Source of the DNA: an uncultured Gammaproteobacteria bacterium
GTDB taxonomy: Bacteria > Patescibacteriota > Patescibacteriia > UBA1558 > GWA2-36-10
Direction of reading: 5' to 3'
NCBI GenBank assembly: GCA_964394835.1
Contig: CAYMZA010000001.1
Span: forward strand, 1 to 58,476
Length of the DNA stretch: 58,476 nucleotides
The position numbers and the translations under genes are program-made. Below, one piece after another: positions 25,958 through 27,629 of the stretch. Position 1 is the stretch's first letter. Every line of letters begins with the position of its first letter. The notes beneath the pieces are model-generated. The model had not been told where the DNA came from and ran no database searches. It saw only the letters and a list, made by a program, of their open reading frames with translations.

Positions 25958-26353
25958 TTATGGGCCTACAACTACATCTTCACTCATACCTTCAACATTT
26001 CCTGTGACTATAATATCTATAACTGTCTTAACTATTACATAAGCCAAAAGCACAATAATAACGCCAATGGTAGCATTTATCATAAGCTCCCTAGCTTTTT
26101 TAACTTTATCTTCATTACCCTGAGAAGTCATCCATTTAAACCCTCCATAAATAATCAAAACAATAAAAAGTGTGCCCAGAATAGACAACAAACCATTTAT
26201 AATTTGTGCTATAATGCTTGGCAGAGTTCCAGACAGCAAATTACCCTTTGCAGACTCAAGACCAGTATCAACTGCAAAAGAAATAGAAGGTATCAAAAAT
26301 ATAAGGCTTAACAAAGAAAGGAAATAAATTGTCTTACTTTTAATTTTCACCAT
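25958..26353 (-). CDS. TrbC/VirB2-like (T4SS-type) pilin family small membrane protein, paralogue 1
   Basis: 131 aa. Signal peptide, then two hydrophobic helices flanking GGFKWMTSQGNEDKVKKARELM. Same architecture as the other three paralogues, with an extra C-terminal tail. Confidence 0.7.
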   Translation of the reverse strand: MVKIKSKTIYFLSLLSLIFLIPSISFAVDTGLESAKGNLLSGTLPSIIAQIINGLLSILGTLFIVLIIYGGFKWMTSQGNEDKVKKARELMINATIGVIIVLLAYVIVKTVIDIIVTGNVEGMSEDVVVGP

Positions 26354-26455
26354 ATTTTTATTTTTTAATATACGCTCTAGTAGACTAAATTACATAGCCT
26401 ACTATAGTCTAGACTAAAATAGATAAAAACTATTTCTGTGACTTTATGCTGCTGT

Positions 26456-26818
26456 TTAAACAGCTATTGTTTCATTATATAAAGATTTCAAAACAAATCT
26501 AGAAATAGCATATGCAGATAATATTATTACTAAACCAACTATACCTGCTCCGATTAATTCTCTAGCTTTCTTAACGTTTTCTTCATTACCCTGAGAGGTC
26601 ATCCATTTAAAACCACCTAATAATATAATAGCTGTAGAAAGAATACCTAAAAAACCTAAAATAATATTTAAAATACTAGCGATTGTATCTGGTAATGACT
26701 TTGTACCAAGAGCAGTCCCTTCATTAGCAAGAACATTACTACCAAAAGGATCATCTGCAGTTTGAGCAAATGCCATCATAGGCATAAAAAGTAATAAAGA
26801 AGTAATTATTTTATTCAT
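26456..26818 (-). CDS. TrbC/VirB2-like pilin family protein, paralogue 2
   Basis: 120 aa. Signal peptide ...MMAFA|QT, a variable segment, then ILGFLGILSTAIILLGGFKWMTSQGNEENVKKARELIGAGIVGLVIILSAYAISRFVLK. Confidence 0.75.
   Translation of the reverse strand: MNKIITSLLLFMPMMAFAQTADDPFGSNVLANEGTALGTKSLPDTIASILNIILGFLGILSTAIILLGGFKWMTSQGNEENVKKARELIGAGIVGLVIILSAYAISRFVLKSLYNETIAV
26486..26665. repeat. 180-bp block, 100% identical to 26904-27083
   Basis: Base-by-base comparison of the two pilin genes. Similarity with scattered mismatches extends to about 26474-26710 versus 26892-27128. Confidence 0.95.
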
Positions 26819-26867
26819 TATGTCACCCCCTTTCTTATATTATTTATATTAAAAAGTATCTTATCTA

Positions 26868-27236
26868 TTACGGTGTTGTTAACACTGTTTTATTATATAA
26901 AGTTTTCAAAACAAATCTAGAAATAGCATATGCAGATAATATTATTACTAAACCAACTATACCTGCTCCGATTAATTCTCTAGCTTTCTTAACGTTTTCT
27001 TCATTACCCTGAGAGGTCATCCATTTAAAACCACCTAATAATATAATAGCTGTAGAAAGAATACCTAAAAAACCTAAAATAATGTTTATAACACTAGCAA
27101 TTGTCTCTGGTAATGACTTTGTACCAAGATTGACTTTATTCGGATTATCAATTAAAGAATTAACACCATAGTAATCATCCCCGGCCATAGCAACCATAGG
27201 TATAAAAAGTAATAAAAAAATAATTAATTTATTCAT
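26868..27236 (-). CDS. TrbC/VirB2-like pilin family protein, paralogue 3
   Basis: 122 aa. The C-terminal two-thirds is identical to paralogue 2; the post-signal segment differs. Confidence 0.75.
   Translation of the reverse strand: MNKLIIFLLLFIPMVAMAGDDYYGVNSLIDNPNKVNLGTKSLPETIASVINIILGFLGILSTAIILLGGFKWMTSQGNEENVKKARELIGAGIVGLVIILSAYAISRFVLKTLYNKTVLTTP
26904..27083. repeat. 180-bp block, 100% identical to 26486-26665
   Basis: Direct repeat at an offset of 418 bp. Confidence 0.95.
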
Positions 27237-27293
27237 GTTTTTATCTTTCTATATAATTATATACATTATACATTAAAAAATATAATTTTACAA

Positions 27294-27629
27294 TTATTGC
27301 GCAAGTAAATCTGTTAAAACAAAATTTAACACCACATAACTACCAAAAATAGCTAGCAGACCAAAAATAGCCCAAACTATTGAATCCCTACCCTTTTTAA
27401 CTTTTTCTGTATTACCTCCAGAAGACATCCATAAAACACCGCCCCAAACAAAGAAAAACAAAGCAAGCGCACCTACAACACCTAATATTCCATTAATCAT
27501 GTTAGCGACTAACCCAGAAGCCTCCACACCATCCAAGGGGTCTGGCAATGGCACACTTTCAACTGCACTAGAAAACAATGGTATTAATAAAAGACTTAAA
27601 ACAATTAATATTTTTTTACTTTTTTTCAT
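27294..27629 (-). CDS. TrbC/VirB2-like pilin family protein, paralogue 4
   Basis: Probable start is MKKSKKILIVLSLLLIPLFSSA (ATG at 27629), not 27674, which would overlap the upstream gene. Core motif WGGVLWMSSGGNTEKVKKGRDSIVWAIFGLLAIFGSYVVL. Confidence 0.7.
   Translation of the reverse strand: MKKSKKILIVLSLLLIPLFSSAVESVPLPDPLDGVEASGLVANMINGILGVVGALALFFFVWGGVLWMSSGGNTEKVKKGRDSIVWAIFGLLAIFGSYVVLNFVLTDLLAQ

Follow-up and report, generated by a model that had tools for sequence, protein, structure and literature searches.

We analyzed a 58,476-nucleotide stretch of contig C1 (here, the window) from the MAG of an ultra-small bacterium (CPR/Patescibacteria); the MAG is 84% complete and consists of 54 contigs. 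Its minus strand carries a tandem array of four small genes, i.e., pilin paralogue 4 (positions 27294..27629; 111 aa from an ATG start, 126 aa if a TTG farther upstream is taken), paralogue 3 (26868..27236; 122 aa), paralogue 2 (26456..26818; 120 aa), and paralogue 1 (25958..26353; 131 aa, with the longest C-terminal tail). All four ORFs are intact, have their own start codons, and are separated by spacers of 49 to 102 nt. When aligned, the proteins share a signal peptide with an AxA-like end (SFA|V, AFA|Q, AMA|G, and SSA|V for paralogues 1 to 4, from ...SISFA|VDT, ...MMAFA|QTA, ...MVAMA|GDD, and ...LFSSA|VES), which is followed by a variable segment, hydrophobic helix 1, the loop GG(F/V)xWM(T/S)SxGNxxxVKK(A/G)R(E/D), and hydrophobic helix 2. 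In paralogue 4, whose loop reads GGVLWMSSGGNTEKVKKGRD, the hydropathy profile contains three hydrophobic segments, corresponding to the signal peptide and the two helices. The initial annotation had described four co-oriented ORFs with a common architecture, and the ORF list, the alignments, and independent gene calls in public assemblies (i.e., 111, 122, 120, and 131 aa) agree with it. A scan for terminators and promoters around the array yielded nothing above the shuffled expectation, and we therefore claim no operon boundaries for it.

The four proteins score above the gathering cutoff (26.6 bits) of the Pfam family PF18895 (T4SS_pilin; VirB2-like pilins of CPR bacteria and archaea), with 43.0, 35.1, 33.4, and 37.2 bits for paralogues 1 to 4 (E values from 5e-11 for paralogue 1 to 5e-8; 3.1e-9 for paralogue 4), and a genome-wide scan with this profile returns the same four array proteins. 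Since these scores exceed the cutoff and the loop motif is kept across a 116-sequence alignment (50 other genomes), the architecture of the array is not a chance resemblance. Matches to the TrbC/VirB2 profile PF04956 (gathering cutoff, 27.9 bits) are full-length and weak (E = 3e-4 to 3e-3): paralogues 1 to 3 reach 21.5, 18.8, and 18.2 bits, all below the cutoff (E = 2.8e-4 for paralogue 1), and the search gave no match for paralogue 4. All four proteins also match the NCBIfam model NF045849 (pilin-like conjugal transfer protein; E = 1e-8 to 5e-7, 4.7e-8 for paralogue 1), with scores of 29 to 34 bits that lie below its 40-bit cutoff. On the basis of these profile matches, we assign the array ORFs to PF18895, a family typical of CPR bacteria, as VirB2-like T4SS pilins. 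The earlier TrbC/VirB2-like family call is thus right, and profile searches, which had been proposed as a check, place the link in PF18895 for all four proteins, with sub-threshold similarity to TrbC/VirB2 itself in paralogues 1 to 3.

An AlphaFold2 model of paralogue 2 is a two-helix hairpin (residues 42 to 74 and 79 to 118; pLDDT, 93 to 98 for residues 51 to 110, 85 for residues 41 to 50, and 77 for residues 111 to 120). A Foldseek search of this model against the PDB for solved VirB2/TraA pilins gave no match at an E value of ≤0.001 (best E value, 0.37); the top matches, ATP synthase subunit c among them, were helical hairpins of a generic kind, and the search can neither confirm nor deny VirB2 homology because a helical hairpin resembles many unrelated proteins. 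Designed "Pizza" repeat proteins matched in a profile search of PDB sequences were discarded as spurious repeat matches. Although ATPases of type IV pili (T4P) are encoded elsewhere in the genome, the array proteins were rejected as T4P substrates by the signal peptide criterion: the four N termini are of the ordinary Sec type with AxA-like sites, and the class III signal peptide of PilA-like type IV pilins, with its G-F-x-x-x-E motif, is absent from all of them.

A 244-bp block spanning the helix-loop-helix core is common to paralogues 2 and 3 (copy A, 26468..26711 in paralogue 2; copy B, 26886..27129 in paralogue 3). DNA alignment and blastn give 97.1% identity between the copies, including a run of approximately 180 nt at 100%, while approximately 110 nt at the 5' end of each gene (i.e., the end of the signal peptide and the exposed N terminus) have diverged. 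The repeat is a break point in many public assemblies. The near-identical core with diverged N termini is of some novelty; relatives typically have arrays of three to eight divergent paralogues.

The gene 10 nt upstream of paralogue 4 encodes an orphan solute-binding lipoprotein (SBP; 27640..29001, minus strand; 453 aa; lipobox SGFG|C; SBP_bac_8 and SBP_bac_1). Just downstream of the array lies a convergent lipoprotein gene without a Pfam match (25163..25906, plus strand), homologs of which occupy this position in 11 related loci: in 10 of them the homolog separates the array from a DUF2079 gene, and in the remaining one it adjoins the array. Approximately 30 genomes keep the order GalU, SBP, array, lipoprotein, DUF2079; the SBP lies upstream of the pilin array in these relatives, adjoining it in most, with SBP identities down to 32 to 39%. 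A BPD_transp_1 permease was not found in 19 of the 21 relatives searched (a count that includes this genome). The combination of GalU, orphan SBP, and array in that many genomes, most of them lacking ABC importer permeases, is likewise of some novelty. Pfam searches of the upstream run detected flippase, Wzy, CapA, DUF6498, GalU-like, and SBP genes, as expected from the earlier placement of the array at the distal end of a minus-strand surface-glycan run. Conserved synteny does tie the array to SBP and surface-glycan genes, and this is no argument against use of the pilins by a T4SS.

We found no VirB4, VirB6, or VirD4 in the 58-kb window, where the FtsK is a full housekeeping FtsK; the initial annotation was accurate on both points for the window. 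At the level of the whole genome, Pfam searches gave no match for CagE_TrbE_VirB, AAA_10, T4SS-DNA_transf, or TrbL (VirB6-like), and tblastn searches of the 54 contigs with VirB4 proteins from six relatives were likewise negative. Scanning all large ORFs for Walker-A motifs returned only a T4CP-like ATPase on contig C14 (TrwB_AAD_bind, TraG-D_C, and a zinc finger). It stands in a housekeeping context and was set aside as evidence in either direction; orphan ATPases of this kind are reported to be common in the phylum, to lie mostly away from virB4, and to be non-essential in Southlakia epibionticum. The C23 flank of the T4SS cluster of relatives is rearranged in this genome and carries no information on the T4SS.

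A conclusion of "no T4SS" from these negatives is overturned by synteny and by identical public scaffolds. Contig C36 (4,349 bp) ends within a repeat-rich gene (K/E/P repeats), where a 55-bp exact repeat explains the assembly break, and this gene is the one that precedes PrgI, TrsD, and VirB4 in a same-genus genome. An exact look-up of the 185-aa EF-P of C36 gave no match, and one of the SSB succeeded. The public matches to C36 are an ENA scaffold of 11,590 bp (L029) with 100.000% identity over all 4,349 bp of C36, a JGI contig (L028) with 99.98% identity, and a further scaffold (L030) with 100% identity that stops early in the TraC-like gene. Beyond the end of C36, L028 and L029 encode PrgI/VirB3 (45 bits), a TraC-like/TrsD protein, and a 632-aa VirB4 (P-loop_TraG, 92 bits), followed by membrane-anchored proteins of 184, 175, and 406 aa, a 346-aa PF18895-like fusion (24.7 bits), and RecG. 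The order is identical in the same-genus genome G001 (contigs C41 and C45); the gene at the end of C36 also precedes PrgI, TrsD, and VirB4 in two other genomes (G006 and G019) and lies approximately 3 kb from VirB4 in two more (G008 and G003). Four metagenome samples (ERZ23498639, ERZ23498658, JGI 3300009375, and JGI 3300007510) each contain a C36-type contig, which extends into the T4SS genes in all but JGI 3300007510, together with a pilin-locus contig at 99.96 to 100% identity. The scaffolds are thus linked to this genome, which is not closed, by 100% identity to a 4.3-kb contig and by co-occurrence in samples. Across this assembly gap, we infer that the organism has a T4SS elsewhere on its chromosome, beyond the end of C36. 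The absence of VirB4 and VirB6 holds for the 54 contigs, but VirB4 is encoded on public scaffolds that are 100% identical to C36. The earlier proposal of a pilin role independent of a T4SS fails, because a T4SS elsewhere on the chromosome is the finding that it had itself named as decisive: a PrgI-TrsD-VirB4 cluster lies on scaffolds identical to C36, and the pilin locus is present in the same samples. The array is not part of a T4SS operon beside virB3/virB4; it lies on C1, flanked by the SBP and DUF2079 genes, while the only pilin-like gene in the VirB4 cluster, on a different contig, is the distinct 346-aa fusion.

The co-occurrence of pilins and VirB4 extends to relatives and to the phylum. 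VirB4 of this type was detected in 40 of 40 relatives searched, and each of 41 genomes (41/41) carries 5 to 16 PF18895 genes. Among 200 high-quality Patescibacteria, 196 encode P-loop_TraG (PF19044); the four negative genomes keep pilins and show weak candidate VirB4 matches, in one of the four beside the pilins, and the idea of genomes with pilins and without VirB4 hence has no solid support. A published survey reports 441 arrays of VirB2-like genes (each 2 to 11 genes) in 383 assemblies and a pilin near virB4 in only 1,135 of 1,948 assemblies; T4SS loci of class ABY1 commonly include recG, as does the cluster described here (PMC12102498, Quiñonero-Coronel 2025). Those pilins of S. epibionticum whose genes lie in the T4SS cluster are essential (PMC10633639, Wang 2023). 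The Patescibacteria T4SS is near-universal and apparently non-conjugative, and essential in the one species tested.

We consider it probable that the four genes encode VirB2-like subunits of a Patescibacteria-type T4SS, arranged as a tandem variable array at a conserved chromosomal site away from the ATPase cluster. Judging from the observed architecture, the pre-pilin would enter the membrane through Sec, signal peptidase I would cleave it at the AxA-like site, and the mature pilin would form a helical hairpin in the cytoplasmic membrane, with the basic loop (..GNxxxVKKAR..) in the cytoplasm and both termini outside. VirB4, together with PrgI/VirB3, the TrsD-like protein, and neighboring membrane proteins, may then pull the pilins from the membrane and polymerize them into a surface filament or conduit, as canonical T4SS biology and the essential pilin series of S. 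epibionticum suggest. Within this filament, the variable N-terminal segment would be turned outward and the conserved loop toward the lumen or lipid, so that several paralogues could provide a choice of exposed surfaces with which to recognize a host. Through gene conversion, paralogues 2 and 3 may retain similar cores even as their N termini diverge. Against this subunit reading stand the distance of the array from virB4, its synteny with an orphan SBP and surface-glycan genes instead, the PF04956 scores below the cutoff, and the failure to find a VirB6-like (TrbL) protein.

A rival reading is that of envelope proteins that act without VirB4 polymerization, the PF18895 hairpin serving as a membrane anchor or scaffold that works with the SBP lipoprotein and glycan genes in surface decoration or host attachment. 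The gene order kept around the array, the SBP without an ABC permease partner, and the location of array and virB4 on separate contigs favor this explanation, and so do giant Ig-domain proteins that are anchored by the same PF18895 domain. We nevertheless consider it unlikely, since its premise of an absent T4SS does not hold for this organism, the VirB4 cluster itself includes a gene for a PF18895-like protein, VirB4 and pilins occur together in essentially every sampled genome, the S. epibionticum pilins are essential together with the T4SS (PMC10633639), and pilin genes in this phylum commonly lie far from virB4 (PMC12102498). The PF18895 domain forms the N terminus of proteins of 226, 514, and 2,926 aa, which is compatible with a simple membrane anchor no less than with a pilus subunit. 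That a pilin domain heads giant Ig-domain proteins is itself of some novelty; these proteins form a conserved pair of approximately 520 aa and 2,400 to 4,600 aa.

An alternative with the T4SS in place is that only one paralogue at a time is a working major subunit, the others serving mainly as donors for gene conversion or for alternative expression that alters the exposed N terminus. The same has been suggested for the arrays of VirB2 paralogues in Bartonella and Anaplasma, and the analogy has been drawn for Patescibacteria (PMC12102498); it is consistent with the 97% identical core of paralogues 2 and 3 beside their diverged 5' parts and with the divergent arrays of relatives. However, each of the four ORFs is intact, with its own start codon and spacer, and the paralogues are identical across several metagenome samples, so that no ongoing switching is visible; we regard such a reservoir as very unlikely. 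A broader reading would make the PF18895 hairpin a general "T4SS display" module, in which the small pilins, the SBP, and the Ig-protein pair form one host-recognition apparatus: VirB4 would draw hairpin proteins out of the membrane and mount them, giant adhesins included, on or along the pilus, and the SBP would be a ligand-binding partner rather than part of a transporter. No T4SS adhesins in Patescibacteria are reported by the published survey (PMC12102498), and we offer this reading as a speculation that is rather improbable.

The main value of reading the four proteins as T4SS pilin subunits is corrective. The window and the whole MAG suggested pilins without a machine, and scaffolds identical to one small contig reveal the machine. 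The SBP-array synteny, the paralogues with a kept core and diverged N termini, and the pilin-headed Ig-domain giants provide handles on filament binding and surface variation.

Compared with canonical VirB2 (T-pilus), TrbC (RP4), and TraA (F-pilus) of PF04956, the array proteins are likewise small pre-proteins in which a signal peptide precedes two hydrophobic helices joined by a short basic loop, and they show weak full-length HMM similarity with scores below the family cutoff. Unlike those Gram-negative pilins, they belong to a monoderm host with no outer-membrane core complex, their genes lie outside a virB operon, and cyclization or acetylation is not indicated. The VirB2 arrays of Bartonella and Anaplasma phagocytophilum resemble this one in tandem pilin amplification and diversification, thought to vary the exposed surface (PMC12102498), although these are Gram-negative intracellular pathogens with an effector-translocating VirB/D4 system, and the analogy is one of pattern, not of close homology. 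The Mbov_0395 family of Mycoplasma ICEs (NF045849) likewise consists of small two-helix proteins from a monoderm host, but it is located on mobile ICEs, whereas the array here is chromosomal and syntenic across an order. Since VirB2-like arrays of 2 to 11 genes in Patescibacteria have already been published (Wang 2023; Quiñonero-Coronel 2025), the locus is a further case of a known array type and one more such array accompanying a Patescibacteria T4SS. It shares with these arrays, including the S. epibionticum ML1 T4SS locus SEML1_0006-0019 (PMC12102498, PMC10633639), the PF18895 family, tandem divergent paralogues (four here), a monoderm CPR host, a chromosomal location, and a partner T4SS of the PrgI/TrsD/VirB4 type with no relaxase nearby and with recG adjacent as in class ABY1. 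It differs from them in its remoteness from virB4 (also the case in approximately 40% of surveyed assemblies), in its conserved site downstream of an orphan SBP, and in having two paralogues that are 79% identical, compared with a reported within-array maximum of 54%.

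The window is AT rich (G+C content, ~28%) and forms contig C1 of a 602-kb genome in 54 contigs (completeness estimate, 83.7%). Between positions 25958 and 27629, it carries four co-oriented minus-strand open reading frames (ORFs) of 131, 120, 122, and 111 amino acids (25958-26353, 26456-26818, 26868-27236, and 27294-27629, respectively). The last of these reads as 126 amino acids from an upstream TTG; independent gene calls of public assemblies start at the ATG that gives 111. In alignments, the four proteins share a Sec-type signal peptide that has a conserved proline and ends in an AxA-like site (i.e., SFA-V, AFA-Q, AMA-G, and SSA-V), followed by 20 to 30 variable residues and two hydrophobic helices joined by the loop GG(F/V)xWM(T/S)SxGNxxxVKK(A/G)R(E/D). 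Both helices were detected in all four proteins by a simple hydropathy scan, which picked up the signal peptide in three. The AlphaFold2 model of the 120-amino-acid paralogue (alignment of 116 sequences) is a confident helical hairpin (residues 42 to 74 and 79 to 118; pLDDT of 93 to 98 over residues 51 to 110). These results bear out the single architecture described in the initial annotation. The 120- and 122-amino-acid paralogues have a 244-bp core in common (26468-26711 versus 26886-27129; 97.1% identity, with ~180 nucleotides at 100%), while their 5' 110 nucleotides, which encode the signal peptide ends and the mature N termini, have diverged. This pattern suggests gene conversion or cassette-like variation, and many public assemblies break exactly at the repeat.

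All four proteins exceeded the curated cutoff of Pfam PF18895 (T4SS_pilin; 33 to 43 bits versus 26.6). Full-length but subthreshold matches to TrbC/VirB2 (PF04956; 18 to 21.5 bits versus 27.9) were obtained for three of them, and all four matched NCBIfam NF045849 ("Mbov_0395 family pilin-like conjugal transfer protein") below threshold. The VirB2/TrbC-type family had thus been called correctly from the sequence. A profile search of PDB sequences returned spurious repeat matches only, and a Foldseek search with the hairpin model returned generic helical hairpins (best E value, 0.37), so the structural comparisons neither strengthen nor weaken the HMM evidence. The N termini are not class III signal peptides of the type IV pilin kind. 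The closest relatives of the four pilins are found in metagenome-assembled genomes (MAGs) labeled Komeilibacteria, Parcubacteria, or Uhrbacteria.

Pfam matches confirmed the reported run of surface genes upstream of the array (i.e., a Polysacc_synt flippase, Wzy_C, PGA_cap/CapA, DUF6498, a GalU-like nucleotidyltransferase, and an SBP_bac_1/8 lipoprotein), with RecA, a RodZ-like protein, and a complete FtsK farther upstream. [quoted passage not shown] The assembly as a whole gave the same picture: its 54 contigs contained no Pfam match to CagE_TrbE_VirB, AAA_10, T4SS-DNA_transf, or TrbL, and tblastn with the VirB4 proteins of six relatives found nothing there. A single related ATPase was identified, an orphan and apparently soluble T4CP-like protein on contig C14 (locus L016, 6854-8587, minus strand) with TrwB_AAD_bind and TraG-D_C domains and a C-terminal treble-clef zinc finger; its neighbors are the housekeeping genes for SecA, AlaRS, and MnmA. 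Type IV pilus ATPases are present in the genome. A VirB4-like protein of ~620 to 650 amino acids occurs in all 40 relatives from the same genus, family, and order, and a P-loop_TraG VirB4 occurs in 196 of 200 Patescibacteria genomes with completeness of at least 90%. An assembly without VirB4 is therefore an outlier.

The gap can be located by synteny. In two relatives (G006 and G019), the cluster runs from PrgI (VirB3-like) through a TrsD/TraC-like protein and VirB4 to three proteins that are small or bitopic and a pilin-like fusion. S6-SSB-S18-EF-P and the gene for an acidic repeat protein flank it on one side, and RecG flanks it on the other. Contig C36 of our genome (4,349 bp) carries S6-SSB-S18-EF-P and ends within the acidic repeat protein gene. 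In the congeneric genome G001, C36 has a collinear counterpart in contig C41 (72 to 93% amino acid identity), which extends into PrgI, a TrsD-like protein, and VirB4 up to residue 279; this VirB4 part overlaps the fragment at the start of contig C45, where the remainder of the cluster and RecG follow. Using the C36 SSB in an exact-protein look-up among public metagenome contigs, we found two ENA scaffolds (L029, 11,590 bp, and L030) with 100.000% identity to the whole of C36 (4,349 bp) and a 21.5-kb JGI contig (L028) with 99.98% identity. Beyond the C36 end, L028 and L029 complete the acidic protein gene and then encode PrgI (45 bits), a TraC-like protein (in whose gene L030 ends early), a 632-amino-acid VirB4 (P-loop_TraG, 92 bits; Walker A, GAGKS), three proteins with one hydrophobic segment each (184, 175, and 406 amino acids), a 346-amino-acid protein with a PF18895-like N terminus (24.7 bits) and a Cys-rich C terminus, and RecG. 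Both a C36-type contig and contigs with 99.96 to 100% identity to the pilin locus of the window occur in ERZ23498639, ERZ23498658, JGI 3300009375, and JGI 3300007510, in the first three of which the former reaches the T4SS genes. At least 7 kb adjoining C36 is missing from the MAG, and recG is absent from its 54 contigs though it flanks the cluster in the relatives and in the identical scaffolds. With high confidence, these sequence comparisons indicate that the organism has a Patescibacteria-type T4SS and that the lack of the VirB4 cluster reflects an assembly gap, in which recG was also lost. The negative search of the 54 contigs for VirB4 and TrbL stands for the MAG. The PrgI-TrsD-VirB4 cluster on the C36-type scaffolds refutes the absence of a T4SS, on which the initial annotation had based its suggestion of a role independent of a canonical T4SS.

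The break itself can be ascribed to a repeat in the acidic protein gene. Tandem repeats are a typical cause of assembly breaks. The gene (387 amino acids; 3736-4899 in L029, partial at 3736-4349 of L027, i.e., C36) contains two copies of a 90-bp tandem repeat (KEAPKPIIKEPKVEIPKPVKEE) in a K/E/P-rich region, and the terminal 55 bp of C36 are found again 90 bp farther along L029. The protein has no Pfam match. In six genomes, its gene immediately precedes PrgI-TrsD-VirB4; it adjoins PrgI where the order could be read and is separated from VirB4 by ~3 kb in G008 and G003. The protein may be an unrecognized T4SS-associated cytoplasmic component.

The surroundings of the array are also conserved. 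Comparison of the SBP gene (27640-29001) with related pilin loci (L034 to L065) revealed that the order GalU, SBP, pilin array, lipoprotein, and DUF2079 is kept in ~30 genomes labeled Komeilibacteria, Parcubacteria, or Uhrbacteria, with the SBP upstream of the array, adjoining it in most, even at 32 to 39% identity; FtsK lies ~10 kb away in many relatives. The convergent lipoprotein gene downstream (25163-25906, plus strand), between the array and DUF2079, has no Pfam match and has homologues in 11 related loci (25 to 41% identity). Of the 21 relatives searched (our genome counted), 19 yielded no BPD_transp_1 ABC importer permease, among them all 12 of the other sampled members of the family, so the SBP appears to be an orphan conserved as a neighbor of the pilin array.

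Arrays in relatives contain three to eight genes and often open with a pilin of 215 to 320 amino acids bearing a C-terminal extension. Our genome encodes three more PF18895 proteins, i.e., one of 226 amino acids on contig C19 and a minus-strand pair on contig C3 (locus L008) with N-terminal T4SS_pilin domains: a 514-amino-acid protein with Big_5 (16867-18411) and a 2,926-amino-acid protein with TIG and Big_5 (8056-16836). Similar side-by-side pairs (~470 to 660 and then 2,200 to 3,800 amino acids) occur in many of the 40 relatives, and we found no description of such PF18895-headed pairs in the literature. Since the C-terminal extension is predicted to lie outside the cell, the C3 pair type represents candidate pilin-anchored or pilus-displayed adhesins; a survey of Patescibacteria detected no T4SS adhesins (PMC12102498). 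These fusions, like the synteny with the SBP neighborhood, are also what would be expected if the PF18895 hairpin were a mere membrane anchor acting with the SBP and glycan genes, as it may be. However, this explanation has lost its premise of a missing T4SS, a PF18895-like gene lies inside the VirB4 cluster itself, and the 200 genomes, once the exceptions had been inspected, gave no firm example of pilins unaccompanied by VirB4.

The family membership of the four proteins, their hairpin architecture and positively charged loop, and a VirB4 cluster in the same population are observed. By extension from canonical T4SS biology and Southlakia epibionticum genetics, the prepilins would be inserted by Sec and cleaved by signal peptidase, the pilins would reside in the membrane with both termini outside, and VirB4 would drive their extraction and polymerization, leaving the variable N terminus exposed outward. 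According to Wang et al. 2023 (PMC10633639), the T4SS of S. epibionticum resembles Gram-positive conjugation systems and nevertheless includes a set of predicted pilins that are essential. In a survey of 3,035 Patescibacteria genomes with PF04956, PF18895, and other profiles, Quiñonero-Coronel et al. (2025) reported VirB4 in 2,417 genomes and VirB2-like pilins in 1,948 of the assemblies with VirB4; only 1,135 had the pilins close to virB4. They also reported 441 arrays of 2 to 11 pilin genes across 383 assemblies and recG adjoining T4SS loci in class ABY1 (PMC12102498). The SBP-array synteny goes beyond that survey, as do the leads on the orphan SBP, the core common to two paralogues, the relatives' arrays, and the PF18895 fusions. 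The array itself is a further example of the already published VirB2-like pilin arrays of Patescibacteria, whose systems are listed in a 2025 review as the only monoderm T4SSs with pilins (PMC12857230).
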